Below, piece by piece: positions 20,308 through 31,126 of a stretch of 32,960 bases of DNA. The stretch covers positions 1-32,960 of the forward strand of contig DAIDBF010000049.1 in assembly GCA_027310235.1 (NCBI GenBank), given 5' to 3'. Origin of the DNA: a bacterium. Its GTDB lineage: Bacteria > Patescibacteriota > Minisyncoccia > UBA6257 > GWB1-50-10. The translations under genes were made by a program, and so were the position numbers. Every line of letters starts with the position of its first letter. Within the stretch, counting starts at the first letter, position 1. The notes under the pieces are model-generated. The model was given only the letters and a program-made list of their open reading frames with translations. It did no database searches and was not told where the DNA came from.

Positions 20308-20333
20308 GTTTGTGGCTGTCGACAGGTTATAAT
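20306..20333 (+). promoter_or_regulatory. Candidate promoter giving a leaderless array transcript
   Basis: TTGTTT (20306-20311), a 16-nt spacer, then TATAAT (20328-20333). ATG 20340 is 6 nt after the -10 hexamer and has no SD. Confidence 0.45.
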
Positions 20334-20339
20334 AATCAG

Positions 20340-22061
20340 ATGCAATCGACTGAAAATATCTGCGTTACTTGCAATCTTCATTTTGAGGTTCTGCCCGACG
20401 ACGCGGTCTTTTACGAAAAAATCGGAGTACCTATCCCGCGATCGTGTCCTTTATGTCGTGCGCGGCACCGACTGACGTTTCGAAACGAACGATCGTTCTA
20501 CAAGAGAAAATGCGATCGATGCGGGAAAGAAAATGTCTCGATGTATAGTTCGAACAAACCGTTCAGAGTGTGGTGTCATGAGTGCTGGTTCTCGGATGCG
20601 TGGGATGCAAAAGATTTCGGGATCTCGTACGACTCCTCGAAACCGTTTTTGGATCAGTTCGGCGCACTTTTGAATACGGTGCCGAAAGTAGGTCTTATGT
20701 ACGAACGGAGCGTGAACTCGGAGTATGTGAATATCTCAGCCGACAACAAGAGCTGCTACATGATTATCGAGTCCTCGAATAATGAGGACTGCACGCATTG
20801 TTACTGGATTCAGGAGTGTCGCAACCTGACGGACGTTTCGTTCGCTTCGAAGACCGAACTCTCATACGAAAGCGACGACTGCTACAAGTCCTACAAACTT
20901 TTCTACAGTAAGGGATGTCACGATTCTCACGACGGATATTTTCTTCTCGATTGCCGCGGGTGCTCCGATTGCATCGGGTGCGTGAACTTGAGGAATACGC
21001 AATACCACGTGTTCAACAAGCCACTCTCGCGGGAGGAGTACGAGGCGTTCAAACAAAAAGTGCGTCTCGATACATGGAGTGGCAAAGAAAAAATACGAAA
21101 GCAATTCGAAGAGTTCATCGCGACGCAACCGAGAAGGTTCGGCGAGGTTTACAATGCGCCGAACTCGTCGGGAAACTACATCAAGGATTCGAAAAACTGC
21201 CGTTCCTGCTTTCATTGCTATGACTCCGAGGACTGCGCGTACGGCGTGCACGTGTGGCGGAACGCGAAGGATTGCATGGATTCCGATACGGCGGGAAGGA
21301 ATGCCGCGCTCGTCTACAACTCGATCAATGCGGGTATCGATACCTCCCATTATATAAGCTGTGCGGTGTGTTGGTCGTGCAGTTTTATGGAGTATTCGTC
21401 ATACTGCTTCAACTCCAATCACTGTTTCGGGTGTGTGGGATTAAGAAAGAAGGATTACTGTATTTTGAACAAGCAGTACTCCAAGGAAGAGTACGAAGAG
21501 AAAAGAGAAAAAATTATTGCGGAAATGAGGCATTCCGGGGCGTACGGCGAGTTTTTCCCCGTCGGAATGAGCACCTTCGGGTATAACGAAAGTGCCGCGC
21601 AGGACCAGTTTCCGCTTACGAAGGAAAAGGCGCTCACGCTCGGATTTTCGTGGGAAGACACTCCGCGCGGAACATACGGGAAAGAAACCATTTCGTGGGA
21701 GGCGATCCCTGATTCGATCCGTGAAATCAAAATTGACGTGTCGAAAGAAATTTTCGCGTGTGTCACGTGTAAAAAGAACTTCAGGATTATCCCGAGCGAG
21801 TTCGAATTTTATAAGCACCTTGAGATTCCTTTACCGAGAGAATGTCCGGATTGTAGACATTTAAGAAGATTCCGTGCACGAGGACCGAACCGACTCTTTG
21901 AGCCGCGGCAGTGCGCGTGCGATTACAAGGTGTATAAGAACTCGACGGTACACCTTCATCATCGTGAAGGGAGATGTCCCAATACGTTTCAGTCGAATTA
22001 TCCCCCGGACGCGAAAGAAATTTTATACTGTGAATCATGTTACCAAACTGAGGTAGTGTGA
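20340..22061 (+). CDS. Cys-rich multi-zinc-ribbon repeat protein, array member g1 (B-like subtype)
   Basis: All family motifs are present: the N-terminal CVTC...FYEKIGVPIPRSCPLCR, then CDRCGK...CHECWFSDAW, two C..C.GC..LR..Y...N caps, YGEFFP..YNESAAQDQFP, the C-terminal CVTCKKNFRIIPSEFEFYKHLEIPLPRECPDCR, and the terminal YCESCYQTEVV. I preferred ATG 20340 over the track's TTG 20310. Confidence 0.9.
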   Translation: MQSTENICVTCNLHFEVLPDDAVFYEKIGVPIPRSCPLCRARHRLTFRNERSFYKRKCDRCGKENVSMYSSNKPFRVWCHECWFSDAWDAKDFGISYDSSKPFLDQFGALLNTVPKVGLMYERSVNSEYVNISADNKSCYMIIESSNNEDCTHCYWIQECRNLTDVSFASKTELSYESDDCYKSYKLFYSKGCHDSHDGYFLLDCRGCSDCIGCVNLRNTQYHVFNKPLSREEYEAFKQKVRLDTWSGKEKIRKQFEEFIATQPRRFGEVYNAPNSSGNYIKDSKNCRSCFHCYDSEDCAYGVHVWRNAKDCMDSDTAGRNAALVYNSINAGIDTSHYISCAVCWSCSFMEYSSYCFNSNHCFGCVGLRKKDYCILNKQYSKEEYEEKREKIIAEMRHSGAYGEFFPVGMSTFGYNESAAQDQFPLTKEKALTLGFSWEDTPRGTYGKETISWEAIPDSIREIKIDVSKEIFACVTCKKNFRIIPSEFEFYKHLEIPLPRECPDCRHLRRFRARGPNRLFEPRQCACDYKVYKNSTVHLHHREGRCPNTFQSNYPPDAKEILYCESCYQTEVV

Positions 22062-22094
22062 TGAGTATCAAGTAGTTAGTATTAAGTATCAAGT

Positions 22095-23858
22095 ATGCAA
22101 GAGACGAAACAGTGTCAGAATTGCAAGAATGAGTTTGTCATCGAACCGAACGATTTCTTATTTTACGAGCGCATACAAGTACCGCCGCCGACGTTTTGCC
22201 CGGAATGCAGGGAGCAGAGAAGAATCGCCTGGAGAAACGAGCGTGCGCTCTATAAGAGAAAATGCGACTTGTGCGGCGAGTCGGTCGTCTCGCGTGTCTC
22301 GCCAGACAAACCATATCCGATGTACTGCAAGAAATGCTGGTGGGGCGACACGTGGAGCCCCTTCTCTTACGGGAGGGAGTATGACTTCTCGCGTCCCTTT
22401 TTCGAGCAGTTCAAGGAGCTCCTGTATGCGACGCCGCATGTCTCGATCCTGAACCTGAATACCGTAAACAGCGAGTGGGTAAATCAGGAAACCGACGACA
22501 AGAACTGCTATCTGAACGTGGGCGGGCATTACAACGAGGATTCCGCCTACAACACCTACTCCCTTTACACCAAGGATTCTCTCGACAACTTCTGGCTTTT
22601 GAACGGCGAGCTCGCATACGAAAACATGAACTGCGAGAAGTGCTACCGCATTCTAGGATCGAGGGATTGCTCCGATTCGCAAAACATCGCCTTCTCCTTC
22701 GATTGTAGGAACTGCTCGGACTGTCTCGGATGCGCGGGACTCAGAAACAAACAATACTACATCTTCAATGAGTCGCATTCGAAGGAGTCGTACGAGAAGT
22801 TTTTGGAAGAACACCCACTGAGTTCATATAAGCATTTTTGCGAATTACGTGCCCGCGCGGCAGTATTTTGGAACACCATTCCTCATCGTTTCGCGTCCAT
22901 CCTAAGATCAAGTGAGGTGAGTGGAAACCACATCACCAATTCGAAGCGAGTATTCAACTCCTGGGACGTAGAAGACAGCGAGGATGCGAAGTACATCTAC
23001 ATCGGAGGATGGCTTCGCGACAGCTACGATGAGAGTGCGCATGGGGCGTCCGAGTTGAGTTATGAGTGCGCAAGCGGCGGGGGGGTATATGATTCGAAGT
23101 TCTGCGTTTTCTGCATGAGCGGCGATCCTTTGAAAAAGATACACTCGTCCGATATTGAGTATTGCTACTCCATAATCGACAGCAAAAACTGTTTCGGGTG
23201 CGCCAATTTGAGAAACGGGGAGTATTGTATTTTGAACAAGAAGTATACGAAAGAGGAGTACGAGGCGCTTCTTCCGAAGATACGACAGCATATGATGGAG
23301 ATGCCGTATCAAGGGAAGAATGGACGGGAGTACCGATACGGAGAATTTTTCCCGATTGAGTTTGCCCCTTATGGTTATAACGAGACCGCGGCGCAGGACT
23401 ACTATCCGCTCGCGAAGGAAGAAGCGATCGAAAAAGGATATTCGTGGTGCGATTACGAGTCGGACGCGAAGTACGAATTTTCGGACTATACGATTCCGGA
23501 CGATATCAAAGACGTGAAAGACGATATTCTTCAGAAAATTCTGAAGTGCGAAGTGTCGTGGAAACCCTATCGCCTCGTTCCTATGGAACTGGAGTTTTAT
23601 AGGAGAATGAACCTCCCGATTCCTCGCGTCTCGCCGCTCGAGCGTCATAATGCGAGAATGAGGAAACTTCTTCCGCGTAAGCTTTTTGAAAGAACATGTG
23701 AATGTAACGGATCATCTTCGGAACGCGGCGGATATAAGAATCTCACCTCCCACGTTCACGGTGTGGGCAGGTGTCCGAATGCGGTGAAAACGCCTTACGC
23801 CCCCGATCGGGGAGAAATCGTGTACTGTGAATTATGTTACCAAGCCGAGGTGGCATAG
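22095..23858 (+). CDS. Cys-rich multi-zinc-ribbon repeat protein, array member g2 (A subtype)
   Basis: 587 aa. The head is MQETKQCQNCKNEFVIEPNDFLFYERIQVPPPTFCPECREQRR. The A-type tail is RTCEC...HVHGVGRCPN...PDRGEIVYCELCYQAEVA. The C-terminal ribbon ligands are lost (KCEVSWKPYRL...RVSPLER). Confidence 0.9.
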   Translation: MQETKQCQNCKNEFVIEPNDFLFYERIQVPPPTFCPECREQRRIAWRNERALYKRKCDLCGESVVSRVSPDKPYPMYCKKCWWGDTWSPFSYGREYDFSRPFFEQFKELLYATPHVSILNLNTVNSEWVNQETDDKNCYLNVGGHYNEDSAYNTYSLYTKDSLDNFWLLNGELAYENMNCEKCYRILGSRDCSDSQNIAFSFDCRNCSDCLGCAGLRNKQYYIFNESHSKESYEKFLEEHPLSSYKHFCELRARAAVFWNTIPHRFASILRSSEVSGNHITNSKRVFNSWDVEDSEDAKYIYIGGWLRDSYDESAHGASELSYECASGGGVYDSKFCVFCMSGDPLKKIHSSDIEYCYSIIDSKNCFGCANLRNGEYCILNKKYTKEEYEALLPKIRQHMMEMPYQGKNGREYRYGEFFPIEFAPYGYNETAAQDYYPLAKEEAIEKGYSWCDYESDAKYEFSDYTIPDDIKDVKDDILQKILKCEVSWKPYRLVPMELEFYRRMNLPIPRVSPLERHNARMRKLLPRKLFERTCECNGSSSERGGYKNLTSHVHGVGRCPNAVKTPYAPDRGEIVYCELCYQAEVA

Positions 23859-23898
23859 TTATCCCCAATATTATCGAGGCCCGGCCTCGATAGATTGA
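23859..23898 (+). repeat. 40-nt repeat containing a GC hairpin (copy 1)
   Basis: ttatccccaatattatcgaggcccggcctcgatagattga is identical over 40/40 nt to 31087-31126. Its core tatcgaggcc-c-ggcctcgata is a 10-nt-arm palindrome. It starts right after the g2 stop. Confidence 0.8.
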
Positions 23899-23909
23899 GA
23901 ACACATCAT

Positions 23910-24029
23910 ATGAACCAAGAAGCCAAAATCTGCCAAAACTCCGACGCTCCGACGAACACGTCGGAGGTCGGAGCCCCGACCCGAAGGCGTCGGGGTTGTG
24001 AAGCGTGCTATCAAAGCGAAGTCATATGA
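23910..24029 (+). pseudogene. Scar of a deleted B-A gene pair (B-type head fused to A-type tail)
   Basis: The 39 codons read MNQEAKICQN...GCEACYQSEVI*. The 5' end matches the g5 head (atgaaccaagagaaaagaatctgccaaaactgc). The 3' end matches the g4 tail (tgctatcaatcagaagtcgtatga) together with its downstream palindrome. The middle consists of GC-rich hairpins. Confidence 0.65.
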
Positions 24030-24033
24030 CAGG

Positions 24034-24053
24034 TGCTATGCTATAGCATAGCA
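24034..24053. repeat. A-to-B junction palindrome (copy 1)
   Basis: tgctatgcta/tagcatagca is a perfect 20-nt palindrome lying 5 nt after the scar's TGA and 13 nt before the g3 ATG. Confidence 0.7.
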
Positions 24054-24066
24054 GTCAAAATATCCC

Positions 24067-25719
24067 ATGAACGAAGAGAAACGAATTTGTCAAAATTGCA
24101 AACAGCCGTTCACAATTGAAATGGATTGTAAGGTTCTGTATGAAAAAATGGGTATTCCGGTACCGAAAGAATGCCACATGTGCATCTGGAAAAATCTGAT
24201 GGCGTTTTGGATCTTCGGAAAATTCAGAAAAACAACCTCGGCACTCTCTGGGAAAACCATCATTACAACGTTTTCAGAAATTACACCATTTCCACTTTAC
24301 GAGTATGAAGAATGGACATCGGATGCGTGGAATCCGTTGGAATACGGCCAGGAATATGATTTTTCGAGGCCATTTTTCGAGCAGTTTGCGGAAGTACAGC
24401 GAAGAACACCTCATCCATATAGATCGGGAACGATGAGCACGAACTGTGAATGGAGTGACGACGCGTGGAGTTGTAAAAACTGTTATCTCTGCCGCTCAAT
24501 GCTTCATTGTGAAGACCTAAGCTATGGTTATCGTACGGTAAATTGTAAGAACTCAATTGATGTCACATTCTGCTTCGATACGGAATATTCTTATGATTGC
24601 ACGTACTGCTTCAAATCATACCGTCTCCGCCACTCATTTGATGCGCGTGATTGTTTGGAAAGCGCATTTCTGTACGACTGCAGGAATGTTCGAAACTGCT
24701 TTATGTGTTGGAATTTGAGGGGAAAACAGTATCACATATTAAACCAACCATACGCAAAGGAGGAGTACTTCAAGAAAATCGGAACGTATAGACTCGACTC
24801 GCGACGTGAACTGGAAAAACTGAGACGCGAATTCGCCAATATCGTCGCTCGCGAAGTGATCCATCGCGCCGATCGCAACTTGAAAGTAGTGAACTCAACC
24901 GGTAATTTTCTCGAGGAATGTAAAAATTGTCATGAGTCATATTTTGCCCAAAAGTCGGAGAATAGTTGTTACCTCTTCCGCGGATTTGAACAACGCGAGG
25001 TTATTTATGCCGCAGGTACCATTGCAGAAAAGGCCGCACTTTCGGTAATGGATGGTTATAACTACGATACGGTTGTGACTTCTCATTGTGGAAGATGTAG
25101 GTATAGCGCATATCTCGATTATTGTGAGGAGTGTGAATATTGTTTCGGGTGCGTAGGATTAAGAAGAAAAAAATATTGCATTTTAAACAAACAATATTCG
25201 GAATCCGAGTATAACGAACTTATCAAGAAAATAAAAGCTCAGATGGTTGCCGATGATGTATGGGGAACGTTTTTCCCATACGCTCTCGCATACGGTGGTT
25301 ATAATCTCTCAACCGCTCAGATGGTTTTTCCGGAAACCCAGGAGGCAATAGAATCGAGAAGAGGAATTTGGGAAGATCTTCCTGAACAAAACTATGAAGG
25401 AATCTCAGGTGATGCAACACCTGATGTAATTGGTGATGTGGGTGATGATTTTTCAAAGCAAGCGGTCATCTGTCCGGAGACAAAGTGGCGATTCAATATA
25501 GCGCCCCAGGAACTCACGTTTTATAGGGAGTTTGGGATACCTCTTCCCAGCTTGCACCCTGATGTACGAACAAAGAATCGTATGAAACCTCTTACTATTA
25601 CTACGCCGCATCAAGGTATCTGTATCTTTTGTTCCAAACCTATAGTGCATTACTATCCTCCGGAGTGGGAATATAAGAAGATCGCATGTATGGAGTGTTA
25701 TCAAAAAGAAGTGATATGA
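24067..25719 (+). CDS. Cys-rich multi-zinc-ribbon repeat protein, array member g3 (B subtype)
   Basis: 550 aa. The head is MNEEKRICQNCKQPFTIE and the short B-type tail is ICIFCSKPIVHYYPPEWEYKKIACMECYQKEVI. The second N-terminal ribbon and the C-terminal ribbon have both lost their Cys. Confidence 0.9.
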   Translation: MNEEKRICQNCKQPFTIEMDCKVLYEKMGIPVPKECHMCIWKNLMAFWIFGKFRKTTSALSGKTIITTFSEITPFPLYEYEEWTSDAWNPLEYGQEYDFSRPFFEQFAEVQRRTPHPYRSGTMSTNCEWSDDAWSCKNCYLCRSMLHCEDLSYGYRTVNCKNSIDVTFCFDTEYSYDCTYCFKSYRLRHSFDARDCLESAFLYDCRNVRNCFMCWNLRGKQYHILNQPYAKEEYFKKIGTYRLDSRRELEKLRREFANIVAREVIHRADRNLKVVNSTGNFLEECKNCHESYFAQKSENSCYLFRGFEQREVIYAAGTIAEKAALSVMDGYNYDTVVTSHCGRCRYSAYLDYCEECEYCFGCVGLRRKKYCILNKQYSESEYNELIKKIKAQMVADDVWGTFFPYALAYGGYNLSTAQMVFPETQEAIESRRGIWEDLPEQNYEGISGDATPDVIGDVGDDFSKQAVICPETKWRFNIAPQELTFYREFGIPLPSLHPDVRTKNRMKPLTITTPHQGICIFCSKPIVHYYPPEWEYKKIACMECYQKEVI

Positions 25720-27509
25720 CCCCGGAAACGAAAACGTGTCAGAACTGTAAGGTTCAGTTCACGATAGAACCCGAGGATTTTGCGTTTTACGAGAAGATGC
25801 AAGTTCCGCCGCCCACGTGGTGCCCGATGTGTCGGATGCAGCGACGACTTGCGATACGAAACGAGCGGTATCTGTTCAAGCGGACAAGCGATTTTTCGGA
25901 AAAGGAGATATTCTCTGGGTACCCGGCATCTGCGCCGATCAAGGTGTATGAGAATGAGGTGTGGTATTCCGATGTATGGGATCCAAGGAGCTTCGCGATG
26001 GATATTGATTTCTCGAGGCCTTTCTTGGATCAACTACTGGAACTCTTCCGTAAGGTCCCCATCTACACGTTGTCTACCGCATTCGGAACGAACAGCGATT
26101 ACGCGAATAACTTCACCGGTTTCAAGAATTGCTACCTTGTGTTTGACGGCAATTATGCCGAGGACTGCATGTACGGGAGGGGCATTAATTATGCGAAAAA
26201 CTCGGTGGATAATTCTTTCCTGGATCACGTGGAAAATGCGTACGGCAACTTCTGGATTAACCGTTCATCGCACCTCATGTATTGTAGCCAGTGCGCCGAT
26301 TCGGTCGATTGTTACTTCTGCAAAAATTGCGTCGGATGTAGCGATTGTTTCGGATGTGTGAACCTGAGAAACAAGAAATATTGCTTTTTCAACAAATCGT
26401 ACCGCAAAGAGGAATACAAAAAACTCCTCGAGCAGTATAATCTCGGATCGTTTAAGGTGATAACGGAACTGGAAGAGAAAACAGGGGAGTTTTACCTGCA
26501 TTTTCCAGTGAAATTCATGGAAGGGATGAAAAACACGAATTCGAGCGGCGAGTACATGTATAACTGCAGAAACGTGCACGATTCGTACATCATTGTGGAT
26601 GCCGAGAATGTCCGTTACTCGTCGTATATGGAGATAGGTCCGATAAAAGATTGCTATGACTATACGGTATGGGGAAACAATGCGGAGCTCCTCTACGAAT
26701 GCGCGGACTGCGGGCTCGGTGTTTCAAACATGAGGTTCTGTATGGCGTGTTGGTCGGAGGTGAGGAACGCGGAGTACTCGCTCTTTTGCCAATCCTCGTC
26801 GGATATTTTCGGGTGTGTCGGACTTCGGAACGGCAAATACTCCATCCTAAATAAAGAATACGGAGAAGAGGAATATAAAATGCTTCGTGAAAAAATTATC
26901 ACGAGCATGAAAGAACTACCCTATCACGCGAACGGAACCGACTACTCATACGGAGAATTCTTCCCTCCCGCGTTTTCCGCGGTTCCTTATAATCACACGC
27001 CGGCATACGAACAATTTCCGCTTACAAAAGAAGAAGCGCTTGCGAAGGGGTATATGTGGGAAGATTCCACCGAGAAGAAGCATGAGCAGACTCTTTTATG
27101 GAGTGATCTACCCGATGCGATACAGGATGTTAAGAACGAAATAACAAAGGAGACGGTACTGTGTGAATCCTGGGAAAAGGATCGGGAAAAAGTCTCGCTT
27201 CGGAACTGCACGAAAGCGTTCCGTTTCCATCCGAACGAAATAGAGTTTTATCGGCGCTACACAACTCCGCTTCCGAGAAAATGTTCCAACTGCAGGGAAT
27301 TCGATCGTCTTCAGAAGAGGAATCCAGCGCGTCTTTATCACCGTGTCTGCCAGTGCGCCGGTGCGAAATCCGAAAACGAAGCGTACGCAAACACCACTAC
27401 TCACCAGCACGGAACGGGGAGATGCGCGAACGAATTCGAAACAAGTTATTCGCCCGACCGAAAAGAGATCATCTACTGCGAGCTGTGCTATCAATCAGAA
27501 GTCGTATGA
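25716..27509 (+). CDS. Cys-rich multi-zinc-ribbon repeat protein, array member g4 (A subtype)
   Basis: The start MTPETKTCQNCKVQFTIEP overlaps the g3 stop (ATGA at 25716-25719). The A-type tail is RVCQCAGAKSENEAY.NTTTHQHGTGRCANEFETSYSPDRKEIIYCELCYQSEVV. The second N-terminal ribbon has lost its Cys (KRTSDFSEK...YENEVWYSDVW). Confidence 0.9.
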   Translation: MTPETKTCQNCKVQFTIEPEDFAFYEKMQVPPPTWCPMCRMQRRLAIRNERYLFKRTSDFSEKEIFSGYPASAPIKVYENEVWYSDVWDPRSFAMDIDFSRPFLDQLLELFRKVPIYTLSTAFGTNSDYANNFTGFKNCYLVFDGNYAEDCMYGRGINYAKNSVDNSFLDHVENAYGNFWINRSSHLMYCSQCADSVDCYFCKNCVGCSDCFGCVNLRNKKYCFFNKSYRKEEYKKLLEQYNLGSFKVITELEEKTGEFYLHFPVKFMEGMKNTNSSGEYMYNCRNVHDSYIIVDAENVRYSSYMEIGPIKDCYDYTVWGNNAELLYECADCGLGVSNMRFCMACWSEVRNAEYSLFCQSSSDIFGCVGLRNGKYSILNKEYGEEEYKMLREKIITSMKELPYHANGTDYSYGEFFPPAFSAVPYNHTPAYEQFPLTKEEALAKGYMWEDSTEKKHEQTLLWSDLPDAIQDVKNEITKETVLCESWEKDREKVSLRNCTKAFRFHPNEIEFYRRYTTPLPRKCSNCREFDRLQKRNPARLYHRVCQCAGAKSENEAYANTTTHQHGTGRCANEFETSYSPDRKEIIYCELCYQSEVV

Positions 27510-27511
27510 TA

Positions 27512-27535
27512 GGTACTATGACGCGTCATAGTACC
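27512..27535. repeat. A-to-B junction palindrome (copy 2)
   Basis: ggtactatgacg/cgtcatagtacc is a perfect 24-nt palindrome lying 2 nt after the g4 stop and 5 nt before the g5 ATG. Confidence 0.7.
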
Positions 27536-27540
27536 CTTAA

Positions 27541-29250
27541 ATGATCATGAACCAAGAGAAAAGAATCTGCCAAAACTGCAAACAATCGTTTACGACAGAA
27601 CCCGAGGACTTCGCATTCTACGAGAAGATGCAAGTACCTCCGCCGACGTTTTGTTCGAAATGTCGGCTTCAGAGAAGATTAGCGTTCTTCAATATTTTTA
27701 ATCTTTACAAGCGCCCTTGTGATCTTTGTGAAAAGGATTTTATTTCGACATACAGATCGGAGGCACCATATAAAGTATATTGTCCGAAGTGTTGGTGGTC
27801 GGACAATTGGGATGTATTTAAATATGGGAGGGAATACGATTTTTCGCGCCCGTTTTTTGAACAATTCAAAGAACTGTGGCACGAGACCCCGGTTTTGGGA
27901 GTTTCAATCGATATTCCCGCGATGCAAACATCACCATACACAAATCACACGGGGCACCTCAAGAACTGCTATCTTCTCTTTCATGCGGATTACGTTGAGG
28001 ATTCGGCATATGGATTTTACCAGGTGCATAATAAATCGGTGTTCGATGCGGTTTGCGCGATGAACTGTGAGATGTGTTATGACAGCCAGAACGCGTTCAA
28101 AAATAATCGGTGCGTGGGGACACGAGGTAATGTCACAAATTCACTCGATTGCTACTTCCTCCGCGATTGCGACAACTGTCAAAATTGTTTCGCGTCCGTG
28201 AATCTCCGGAACGCGAAATTTCAGATATTTAATAAACAGTATTCAAGAGAAGGGTATTTCGAGGAACTCAAGAAATGGGATTTCGGTTCGTATAAGACCT
28301 ATTGCGAGGTGGAAAAAATGGCGCACGAACACTGGAGGGAATTCCCGCCGCGCCCGAAGTACGATGATTTCTCAGTGGATTGCACAGGAAGCTATATTTT
28401 TCAGTCGAAGAACTGCAAGGAATGTTTTGATTCAACAAACGTGCAGGACTCGAAATTCATGCTTCTCGTCGAAGACAGACCGACAAAGGATTCCTACGAT
28501 ATCTCAAGCTGGGGAAATAATATGACGCGCTGCTATGAATGCTGTAATGTCGGTGAAGACGTATCGGACGTGCGATTTTCACAGGAATCGGGACTCACGC
28601 TTATGGATGCTGAGTACTGTAAGCTCTCGACGGGATCGCATCACTTCGGATGTGTATCGGTGAAGAAAGGAGATTATGTCGTTCTGAACAAACGGTATTC
28701 GAAGGAGGCATATGAGGTGCTCACCGCGAAGATCCGCAAACACATGGATATAGTGCCATATATCGACAAGAAGAAGAGGGTATATAGGTATGGCGAGTTC
28801 TTTCCGATCGAGATTGCGCAGTTCGCCTACAATGAAACGATTGCAAATGATTTCTTCCCGATGAGTAGGGCAGAAGCGGAGTCGGATGGGTATTATTGGA
28901 ATGAACCGGAAGAGCGGAATCACATGATTACAAAATCGTACGCCGATCTTCCGGATCACATCAATGATGTGGAGGACAATGTTTTGAATGAAGTCGTTGG
29001 ATGTGAAGTATGCGGTAAGGGATACAGGATCACGCCTATGGAGCTCTCGTTTTTGCGCCAGATGCGCCTGCCACTCCCGCGCACGTGCCCCTTCTGTAGG
29101 ATCAATGAGAAGTTCAAACAATGGGTAAAGAATCTTCGTATAATTCCACGTGTGTGCGATCGATGTGGCGCGCATTTCACGACGAATTACACGAAAGAAG
29201 AAGCACCACACATTTTGTGCAAGGAATGCTATCTTAAGGAGGTAGTATGA
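27541..29250 (+). CDS. Cys-rich multi-zinc-ribbon repeat protein, array member g5 (B subtype)
   Basis: 569 aa with the head M(IM)NQEKRICQNCKQSFTTEP. All ribbons are intact. The short B-type tail is RVCDRCGAHFTTNYTKEEAPHILCKECYLKEVV. The start may be 27547. Confidence 0.9.
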   Translation: MIMNQEKRICQNCKQSFTTEPEDFAFYEKMQVPPPTFCSKCRLQRRLAFFNIFNLYKRPCDLCEKDFISTYRSEAPYKVYCPKCWWSDNWDVFKYGREYDFSRPFFEQFKELWHETPVLGVSIDIPAMQTSPYTNHTGHLKNCYLLFHADYVEDSAYGFYQVHNKSVFDAVCAMNCEMCYDSQNAFKNNRCVGTRGNVTNSLDCYFLRDCDNCQNCFASVNLRNAKFQIFNKQYSREGYFEELKKWDFGSYKTYCEVEKMAHEHWREFPPRPKYDDFSVDCTGSYIFQSKNCKECFDSTNVQDSKFMLLVEDRPTKDSYDISSWGNNMTRCYECCNVGEDVSDVRFSQESGLTLMDAEYCKLSTGSHHFGCVSVKKGDYVVLNKRYSKEAYEVLTAKIRKHMDIVPYIDKKKRVYRYGEFFPIEIAQFAYNETIANDFFPMSRAEAESDGYYWNEPEERNHMITKSYADLPDHINDVEDNVLNEVVGCEVCGKGYRITPMELSFLRQMRLPLPRTCPFCRINEKFKQWVKNLRIIPRVCDRCGAHFTTNYTKEEAPHILCKECYLKEVV

Positions 29251-29291
29251 CGAGCGAGTAGTAAGTAGTTTATAGTGAGTAGGATGAGTTT

Positions 29292-31055
29292 ATGACTACC
29301 GAGACGAGAACGTGTCAGAATTGTAAATCCGAGTTCATTATCGAACCGGACGATTTTGCGTTTTACGAGAAGATTGACGTACCACCGCCGACGTTTTGTC
29401 CCGCGTGTCGAAAACAGCGACGACTCGCGTGGCGCAACGACCTTTCGCTTTATACGAGAAAATGTGATTCCTGCGGAAAAAATGTGGTGTCACTTTATGC
29501 CCCGAATGGACCCATAGAGACCGTATATTGTCAAAAGTGCTGGTGGTCAGATAAATGGGATCCGATGGCGTACGGCCGTGAGTACGATTTCTCGAAGCCA
29601 TTTTTCGAGCAATTTGCCGCGCTCCAAAGACACGTACCGACACTCGCAATGATTAATGACGATGGAGTGGGAAGTATAAATTGCGAATACACGCAGGATT
29701 TTGCGCGTAGCAAGAATTGTTACATGGTGTTTATCGCGTGGAAGCTTGAGGACTGTCTCTATAGTTTCTATATTCTTGACGGCAAGGAAATTGTGGATAG
29801 TTTAAACTCCATGGGCGAGTGTGAGATGATCTACGATACCGTATACACGGAGAAATGTTACCGGTGTCGCAACGTGTATTATTCGGTTACGCTTTCTGAT
29901 TGTAATTTTTGTTGGGATTGTCGTGATTGCTCCGATTGTTTTCTCTGCGTAGGGCTTCGCCATAAACGATACTGCTTCAAGAATAAGCAGTATTCCAAAG
30001 AGGAATATGAACATATTCTTGCCGAATATCGGCTCAATGCGTACTCGGGGATTCAGCGTGCGTCGAGTGAACTTCAACCGCTTTTATTTCAATACCCCCG
30101 CAGGTTTTCAAATTTGCGTAATTGTGTGCGTTGTACCGGTGACGCGCTTATTAATGGAAAGAACTCAAAGGATTGCTTTAACGTTCAGCGACCTGAAGAT
30201 TGTCGATGGATAGAAAATTCCGATACACCTACAGCGAGCTATGATTTGAGTGTCGGGGGAGAACTTGAAAACTGCTATGAGGGAATCACCCCCGACCACT
30301 CGTATCGCGGCCGCTTCGAGATATTTTCTTGGAAAAACACCGAAGTTTCTTATACGGATGCGTGTCATTCTTGTAAAGATGTGTTTGGATGCGTGGGTCT
30401 TAAGAAGGCGCAATACTGTATCCTCAACAAACAGTACTCAAAAGAGGAATATGAAATACTTGTGCCAAAGATTAAAAAACATATGAATGAAATGCCTTAT
30501 ATCGACCGTTCCGAAGTAATATATCGTTTTGGAGAATTTTTCCCCGCCGAACTTTCCTACTTTGCGTACAACGAAACCGGCGCGCAAGAATCGTTTCCTA
30601 TGTCGCACGAAGAAATTTCCGGATGTGGTTTACGGTGGCAGGACAATTTTCAAACTACGGTTGGAAAAGAAACCCTTACGGCGGATGAACTACCAGACAG
30701 TATTAACGATGTTGAAAATTCTATCTTGAATGAGGTGTTGCGGTGTGAAACATGTGCGAGGAACTATCGTATCGTGCCGCGCGAACTGGAGTTCTACCGA
30801 AAGATGCGAATACCTCTCCCGCGCCATTGTTTCCATTGTCGTACGAAAGCACGTTTCAATTTACGAAATCCGTTTTCACTTTGGCACCGCACTTGTCAAT
30901 GTGTTGGTCCAAAATCCGAGAATGGCGCCTACCAAAACACCGCATCTCATGACCACGGGACAGAAAAATGTCCCAATACATTTGAAACGAGTTATGCACC
31001 CGACCGCCCGGAGATTGTATATTGCGAGGGGTGCTATCAAAAGGAGGTAGTATAG
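29292..31055 (+). CDS. Cys-rich multi-zinc-ribbon repeat protein, array member g6 (A subtype)
   Basis: 587 aa with the head MTTETRTCQNCKSEFIIEPDDFAFYEKIDVPPPTFCPACRKQRR. All ribbons are intact. The A-type tail is RTCQCVGPKSENGAYQNTASHDHGTEKCPNTFETSYAPDRPEIVYCEGCYQKEVV. Confidence 0.9.
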   Translation: MTTETRTCQNCKSEFIIEPDDFAFYEKIDVPPPTFCPACRKQRRLAWRNDLSLYTRKCDSCGKNVVSLYAPNGPIETVYCQKCWWSDKWDPMAYGREYDFSKPFFEQFAALQRHVPTLAMINDDGVGSINCEYTQDFARSKNCYMVFIAWKLEDCLYSFYILDGKEIVDSLNSMGECEMIYDTVYTEKCYRCRNVYYSVTLSDCNFCWDCRDCSDCFLCVGLRHKRYCFKNKQYSKEEYEHILAEYRLNAYSGIQRASSELQPLLFQYPRRFSNLRNCVRCTGDALINGKNSKDCFNVQRPEDCRWIENSDTPTASYDLSVGGELENCYEGITPDHSYRGRFEIFSWKNTEVSYTDACHSCKDVFGCVGLKKAQYCILNKQYSKEEYEILVPKIKKHMNEMPYIDRSEVIYRFGEFFPAELSYFAYNETGAQESFPMSHEEISGCGLRWQDNFQTTVGKETLTADELPDSINDVENSILNEVLRCETCARNYRIVPRELEFYRKMRIPLPRHCFHCRTKARFNLRNPFSLWHRTCQCVGPKSENGAYQNTASHDHGTEKCPNTFETSYAPDRPEIVYCEGCYQKEVV

Positions 31056-31126
31056 CCAATATTAAGGAGGCCCGGCCTCGATAAAGTTATCCCCAATATT
31101 ATCGAGGCCCGGCCTCGATAGATTGA
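31056..31126 (+). repeat. Degenerate plus perfect copy of the 40-nt hairpin repeat
   Basis: 31056-31085 (ccaatattaaggaggcccggcctcgataaa) is a variant copy. 31087-31126 is identical to 23859-23898. The repeat begins directly after the g6 stop. Confidence 0.8.

Follow-up and report, generated by a model that had tools for sequence, protein, structure and literature searches.

A probable family-gene stub carrying a two-hairpin palindromic element in a cysteine-rich gene array of Patescibacteria

A 39-codon open reading frame (ORF) lying between two genes of a cysteine-rich protein family was analyzed in the window, the whole 32,960-nt contig (C20) of the genome under study (G000). The ORF is probably an old stub of a family gene, into which a selfish two-hairpin palindromic element was later inserted in frame. 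The inserted block is a copy of a dispersed repeat, it is absent from the colinear mini-ORFs of two sister species, and the sister arrays contain no additional gene pair at this site. What had appeared to be evidence for a recent deletion in the array would thus consist of an older gene stub and a later mobile insertion.

The array and the composition of the ORF

The G000 genome (743 kb, 101 contigs, GC 0.49) contains about 20 full or partial copies of the cysteine-rich family distributed over 15 contigs, and by this count the family was estimated to take up roughly 5% of the genome. Six of the paralogues (g1-g6, 550-607 aa each) form the array at 20310-31055, which is flanked on either side by a T4 coupling-protein-like ATPase. 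Thousands of unnamed homologues of the array proteins were found, with source names such as Staskawiczbacteria, Nomurabacteria and similar, which places G000 in the Patescibacteria; no meaningful match was obtained when the family proteins were searched against Pfam, NCBIfam and PDB sequences. The ATGA overlap is the usual junction between genes inside these arrays, and family genes often end in ATATGA overlapping the next ATG. The features around the ORF are listed in Table 1.

Table 1. Features of the window at and around the 39-codon ORF
Feature	Position	Strand	Remark
g2, upstream family gene, own tail intact	22095..23858	+	87% identity to G003 a2, 85% to G001 b2
REP-A, 40-nt palindromic repeat, core GAGGCCCGGCCTCG, directly 3' of the g2 stop	23859..23898	.	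14-mer core 48 times in the genome
Head remnant MNQEAKICQN, first 10 codons of a family gene	23910..23939	+	25/30 nt to g5 start
Two-hairpin palindromic element copy, 57 nt (19 codons), in frame	23940..23996	+	Missing at the colinear loci of G001 and G002
Tail remnant CEACYQSEVI and stop, last 10 codons and stop of an A-type family gene	23997..24029	+	29/33 nt to the gene at the end of C15
REP-B, palindrome, core GGTGCTATGCTATAGCATAGC	24030..24055	.	Follows the mini-ORF in all three species
g3, family gene led by the mini-ORF	24067..25719	+	From the ORF list

The ORF at 23910-24029 was translated to MNQEAKICQNSDAPTNTSEVGAPTRRRRGCEACYQSEVI followed by a stop codon. Its first 30 nt were compared with 31 sites carrying the CQNC motif in G000 and in two sister arrays, a few of which are internal and not gene starts, and the identities ranged from 13 to 25 positions. 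The best score belonged to g5 (25/30), several A-type heads reached 23/30, and the other B gene of the array, g3, only 20/30. Against the heads of the mini-ORFs in two sister species (G001:C2 and G002:C3), 24 of the 30 positions agreed, as counted by hand from the three-way alignment. Judged by these scores, the ORF begins with a family head whose A or B subtype they do not assign, and the "B-type start" of the original prediction is not significant.

The last 33 nt of the ORF matched the end of g4 at 25 positions, followed by 17/30 over the next 30 nt downstream, so that the g5-like start, the g4-like end and the downstream palindrome that had been described were all recovered by alignment. 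The best match lay outside the window, in an A-type gene located where contig C15 ends (29/33), which encodes the identical peptide CEACYQSEVI, and b2 of the G001 array scored 25/33 with a further 25/30 downstream. The first 20 nt or so of the tail remnant are common to the element-linked tails on C15 and C95. The two GC-rich hairpins were found as placed, at 23939-23973 and 23974-23995. Folded as RNA, the region 23900-24066 reached -65.3 kcal/mol, compared with -39.6 +/- 3.9 kcal/mol for shuffled sequences (z = -6.6). The head, tail and hairpin features are far beyond chance. The earlier view of the ORF as the head-to-tail remnant of a family gene was confirmed, its flanks being a family head and a family tail; the similarity at both ends is real, and it was the B specificity of the head that did not hold.

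A self-complementary octamer, TCATATGA, spans the start (23906-23913) and also the stop (24022-24029) of the mini-ORF; in the predicted fold, these two octamers are paired with each other.

Two palindromic repeats border the ORF. The 14-mer core of REP-A gave 48 matches in 743 kb with both strands counted, and 40-nt copies with 97-100% identity were present on many contigs and at 31056-31126, where two copies lie 3' of g6. REP-A also precedes the G001:C2 mini-ORF and follows the last array gene in G001, and it is probably the main terminator-like or REP-like element of G000. REP-B was found once in G000, about 8 times in G001, about 24 times in G002 and not in G003, in varied contexts. The palindrome that had been proposed as a preserved A-to-B junction signal is therefore a genus-wide repeat and not such a signal. 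The REP-B counts hint that the block of stub, g3 and g4 may have come from a G001-like or G002-like source. The sister species differ in their dominant palindromic repeats.

The inserted block is a dispersed two-hairpin element

The two hairpins had been interpreted as GC-rich filler of a deletion junction, and a search of the genome for this filler had been proposed. By BLAST and by a covariance model built from the copies, five copies were detected in G000, on C20, C95, C15, C22 and, in diverged form, C98, and all five sit at the ends of cysteine-rich family genes. The block is thus a 57-nt copy of a dispersed repeat instead of unique filler, and the colinear mini-ORFs in G001:C2 and G002:C3 are without it. 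The consensus consists of RCTCCGACGC, a variable stem-loop, GGTCGGAG, YCCCGAC, a loop and GTCGGGR, with a total length of 48-68 nt. The ends of the C20 copy at 23940 and 23996 are ambiguous by 1-2 nt, and the longest exact stretch that it has in common with another copy is 48 nt. The terminal inverted repeats, 5' CTCCGAC and 3' GTCGGGG, match at 6 of 7 positions, and compared with the insert-free site in G001 no duplicated flank was found beyond the 1-2 nt ambiguity.

The stems are maintained by covariation. Among 25 copies of the element, 95.7% of the pair cells were paired and double changes were observed at 9 of the 18 pairs, a level reached by none of 500 shuffles. The mismatches in the stems comprised 11 G-T and 10 A-C, and these similar frequencies fit a DNA palindrome better than a strand-specific RNA. 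No Rfam family was matched by the hairpin region; the best E value was 0.53, with a score far under the gathering threshold. In C98 and in L031 the element is traversed in another reading frame, and the C15 copy contains a premature stop. A derivation of the hairpins from the coding sequence of an A-type tail (APDR..., 11/15 nt match) was considered and rejected, as the element copies located in unrelated genes have these bases too.

The covariance model gave matches in 33 of 100 related Patescibacteria genomes, and none anywhere in the G002 genome. Copies in relatives were found in frame inside the long open frames of LeuRS, a glycosyltransferase, Ndh, UvrB and NusA. The LeuRS (22-aa gap), Ndh (15-aa gap) and NusA (gap) of G000 itself are without an insert exactly at these positions. 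Ribosome bypass or intron-like removal was also considered and is not needed, as all genic copies are in frame and free of stops.

The element was compared with known systems of repeats. Rickettsia palindromic elements (RPEs) reportedly lie in frame inside protein-coding genes. They are roughly 100-150 nt in length. Like RPEs, the present element is a short dispersed palindromic repeat that lies in frame in genes which stay open, gives the protein an additional peptide loop and is found in a genome that is small and reduced; it is present in multiple copies, its hairpin structure is kept, and the genes that carry it in frame have insert-free orthologues, so that it is RPE-like by build and placement. 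Unlike RPEs, it occurs in Patescibacteria, has only 48-68 nt with two hairpins and a variable top of hairpin 1, and all five G000 copies are attached to the ends of one gene family. In full-text literature searches, no account of palindromic elements lying in frame was found for this bacterial group. A compact two-hairpin element family, new to the literature searched, is tolerated in frame in essential genes of ultra-small bacteria; its inserts break short-word assemblies and would add spurious loops to predicted proteins.

With REP/BIME repeats and IS200/IS605 elements (Y1/HUH), the element has in common GC-rich hairpins whose stem bases are conserved, the lack of a visible target duplication and a strongly biased orientation with respect to the host genes; G000 also contains three ORFs with a Y1_Tnp domain (C8:1210-1569, C13:2020-2241 and C55:4961-5188). 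In contrast to REP/BIME repeats with their RAYT, its copies lie inside ORFs and are not extragenic, and no 5' GTAG-like tetranucleotide is present, the left flanks showing only a loose A-(A/G)-C. No copy flanks a Y1 gene and no autonomous relative was found. The Y1 ORFs, together with nine GIY-YIG ORFs of G000, are candidate movers of the many hairpin repeats in this genome; none of these ORFs adjoins any of the G000 copies of the element. Of the features of MITEs, terminal inverted repeats (6/7) are present, and a target-site duplication is not. The integron attC site resembles the element in being a palindrome of the recombination-site type, with an outer stem that is conserved, a base that is bulged and a centre that varies, placed between genes with conserved ends. 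Unlike attC, the element has no RYYYAAC/GTTRRRY core sites, no such site lies between the other array genes, and copies occur inside unrelated housekeeping genes.

The stub in sister species and the proposed order of events

A scan for short ORFs revealed hairpin-free mini-ORFs in both sister species, MNAETKTCQNHKQHYQTETL with a stop in G001:C2 and MNPEVKICKDCHQFGVI with a stop in G002:C3. In the three-way alignment, G000 and G001:C2 were colinear from REP-A as far as the head of the following family gene, with the spacer, the mini-ORF and REP-B in between, and the sole large difference between them was the 57-nt block, present in G000 only and lacking in G002:C3 as well. The order of mini-ORF, REP-B and family gene was the same in G000, G001 and G002, with REP-A on the 5' side also in G001. 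The neighbours differ. The genes 5' of the mini-ORF are not the same between species, no orthologue of the gene upstream of the G001:C2 stub was found in a search of G000, and the genes on the 3' side are not orthologous (33-51% identity). These different flanking genes indicate that the module travels with, or is kept before, different family genes. The g3 gene has no orthologue in the sister arrays (identity at most 34%), and its first 60 nt or so align with the genes 3' of the G001 and G002 mini-ORFs.

Start and stop of the mini-ORF are kept in all three species. The tail remnant of G000 agreed with that of G001, which reads HKQHYQTETL, at only 14 of 33 nt (hand-counted), compared with about 85% identity of neighbouring orthologous proteins, and the three orthologous peptides have about half of their residues in common. 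Judged by this alignment, the peptide is not well conserved and does not behave as a small protein under purifying selection; the conserved 39-aa gene in relatives, which the original prediction had named as the observation that would speak against it, was not found. Like internally deleted pseudogenes, the stub retains the first and last 10 codons of a gene of about 580 codons and its peptide drifts quickly. In contrast to them, it has retained its start and stop codons in three species, stands before a family gene in each of them, and served as a landing site for a mobile element.

The sister arrays were then compared at the orthologous site. Between the two conserved ATPases there are seven family genes in G003, six in G000, four in G001 before the contig ends, and none in G002. 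In G002, the interval holds one unrelated 534-aa ORF. Orthologues of g1, g2 and g5 with 84-87% identity were found in the sister arrays, and a weaker counterpart of g6 (62% to a7). Neither g3 nor g4 has an orthologue there, and a3 and a4 have none in G000. In the G003 array (a1-a7), a2 overlaps a3 with no gap and no extra pair, and the G001 array runs b2-b3-b4-b5. There is no intact fourth pair at the orthologous site in the sister arrays, contrary to the proposed in-place deletion of a fourth B-A pair. The expansion and contraction of the array that had been proposed along with it is borne out by the variable gene number between sister species, although the ORF is not its footprint.

Based on these comparisons, three layers of events may be proposed. 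In the first, a family gene would have lost its body, so that a 10-codon head was fused to a 10-codon tail; the ancestral loss may have involved one gene or two, and the resulting stub would predate the species of G000. In the second, the block of REP-A, stub, REP-B, g3 and g4 would have replaced two genes 3' of g2 (a3-a4) in the G000 lineage. In the third, the 57-nt element copy would have entered the stub between the CQN of the head and the CEAC of the tail, in frame and without a stop. As G001 and G002 have the stub without the hairpins, the stub is likely to be older than the insert, with the direction, a gain in G000 as opposed to losses in G001 and G002, inferred from only three genomes.

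The route of arrival is suggested by the extent of similarity between copies. Compared with C95 and C15, the C20 sequence showed 91-92% identity from the first base of the element to +85, about 20 nt into the tail, and C95 and C15 have in common a 182-nt unit (-90 to +92) in surroundings that are otherwise unalignable. Since the similarity extends beyond the element into the tail, by about 20 nt, the element probably arrived by recombination from an element-plus-tail unit 3' of an A-type gene. Judged by the pattern in C95, C15 and C20, it may have spread from one family tail to another by recombination or gene conversion, and a conversion of the tail would explain why it is fresh in G000 and decayed in G001. 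The element itself would be selfish DNA, with hairpin-forming inverted ends and no visible target duplication, which survives only where it is harmless. The stub is most probably without a function of its own, and its translation would do no more than bring ribosomes towards g3.

Alternative readings and the element at other loci

It is also conceivable, though on balance unlikely, that the mini-ORF and its hairpins act as a 5' leader for g3-g6, either by translation that couples ribosomes to g3 or by hairpins that bind a regulator. Such a regulator could possibly be a zinc-ribbon protein of the family itself, and an origin from a selfish element would be compatible with this role. In favour of a leader, the mini-ORF has kept its start and stop in three species and lies immediately 5' of a family gene in each, the inserted element preserves the frame, and the ATGA overlaps make coupling the normal mode in this gene family. 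Moreover, in C98 of G000 and in G003, G047, G167 and G350, short head frames remain open through an element copy, and their stop overlaps the next ATG or precedes it by 0-13 nt. Against a leader, the second half of the peptide, the tail, changes rapidly from species to species, and the mini-ORFs of G001 and G002 have no hairpins. The distance of 37 nt from the mini-ORF stop to g3, with an intervening palindrome, is also a poor geometry for coupling. In addition, the G-T and A-C mismatches are symmetric, there is no Rfam match, no promoter-like or terminator-like site bears on a leader role, and a short GC-rich frame is easily open by chance.

The leader role is retained as a minor possibility because of the recurrence of the CQN head across genera. 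The arrangement of a head ending in CQN, the element, about 12 nt and a full family gene was found again in G003 (the orthologue of the C98 locus), G047, G056, G167 and G350; the element is inverted in G056, and G167 and G350 belong to another taxonomic family. A pattern scan for the junction of CQN head and element in 401 genomes gave 10 matches, compared with 3 for the reversed control, and seven of the matches, in six genomes, were true junctions. A metagenome scan for the head-element junction gave 120 matching stretches, and all 80 loci inspected were chance matches. In a second arrangement, observed on C95, C15 and C22, in G019 and in contig L031, the stop of an A-type gene precedes ATGARGGTRTAC, an element copy and another tail, in that order. 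Among species-representative genomes, no match was found for the pattern of AAC, element and tail, and a looser element pattern gave one match, L031, of the after-gene type. The recurrence of the CQN head shows more order than random selfish insertion predicts, and hints at a site preference or a function. The two arrangements may reflect such a preference, a function, or descent from a common ancestor followed by long retention.

In a broader form of the leader reading, which we regard as doubtful, head and hairpin would be a family leader device conserved across a Patescibacteria order, combined with a site preference of the element for CQN and CExC. If so, the element would help to shuffle, silence or switch family genes and would not be a mere passenger, and its site preference might come about, for example, via homing or hairpin-targeted recombination. 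In any case, the element recurs beside the ends of a family that takes up about 5% of the genome, and it may bear on the turnover of that family.

A deletion mediated by the element itself would give the originally proposed deletion a concrete mechanism: copies located after CQN and before CExC would recombine, the gene or genes between them would be lost, and G001 and G002 would later lose the element. Head sites (C98, L006, L022, L167 and L168) and tail sites (C95, C15, C22, L021 and L031) do exist, each separately. Nevertheless, this route appears improbable. It requires the 57 nt to have been excised twice, independently and almost exactly, once in G001 and once in G002. No copy of the element is present anywhere in G002, and no full-length family gene was seen with the element at either site and without an accompanying duplicate. 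In G002, the fusion point coincides exactly with the shared CxxC codons, suggesting a simple deletion by microhomology in which the element took no part.

The original explanation, a recent in-place deletion of about 3.4 kb that removed a fourth B-A pair and left unique GC-rich filler, is hardly tenable. Head and tail are indeed similar to g5 and g4, and the gene number in the arrays varies between species, but the filler is a repeat, the same stub occurs at other loci in other species, an additional pair is missing from the sister arrays, the head shows no B specificity, and the best match of the tail lies outside the array. The observation thus stands, and its interpretation is largely replaced by a repeat insert, an older stub and the lack of a fourth pair.

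An assembly artefact, with the contig mis-joined across the element or REP-A, was also weighed. The sequencing runs SRR5161795 and SRR5161805 contain this strain. The short-word Logan contigs carrying g2 and g4 end within REP-A and within the element, so that neither repeat is bridged by an independent assembly, and the C20 copy shares an exact stretch of at most 48 nt with another copy. On the other side, synteny with G003 assigns the two halves of the contig alike to the locus between the ATPases. Head and tail are immediate neighbours in G001 and G002, which is the order expected for joining across the element, and both flanks of all five assembled copies are accounted for; these two facts make a chimeric join very unlikely.

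Several further observations were made at other loci of the family and the element. On the minus strand of G000:C98:10240-10495, three family heads are stacked before one gene: VVQEKRTCQN with the element comes first, a second head, MIKQENKVCQNCELAFLIEPE, is followed by another hairpin and a stop, and the third head opens the full gene, so that head remnants of the family accumulate here at the 5' ends of family genes. In L024 (G016:C2) and L016 (G039:C5), copies of the element adjoin tRNA genes. The L024 locus consists of tandem units, each repeating on one side of the element the first 14 nt or so of the neighbouring tRNA gene, which is the same pattern of duplicated 5' ends as in the cysteine-rich protein family.

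In four loci from four genomes of four genera (L013, L016, L018 and L024), a copy is located next to or within the 5' portion of rplL, the gene of L7/L12, and these copies may represent either a shared old insertion or a hot spot. The L031 contig (NZ_JALOBC010000097.1, 2.5 kb) is filed under a Dokdonella MAG and carries a family gene of the Patescibacteria type, the element and an ATPase; it is probably a binning contaminant in that MAG. In L012 (G084:C3), an 86-aa GIY-YIG-like ORF (MSGYVYILKNEKGNFYIGSTDN...) begins 10 nt after a copy of the element.
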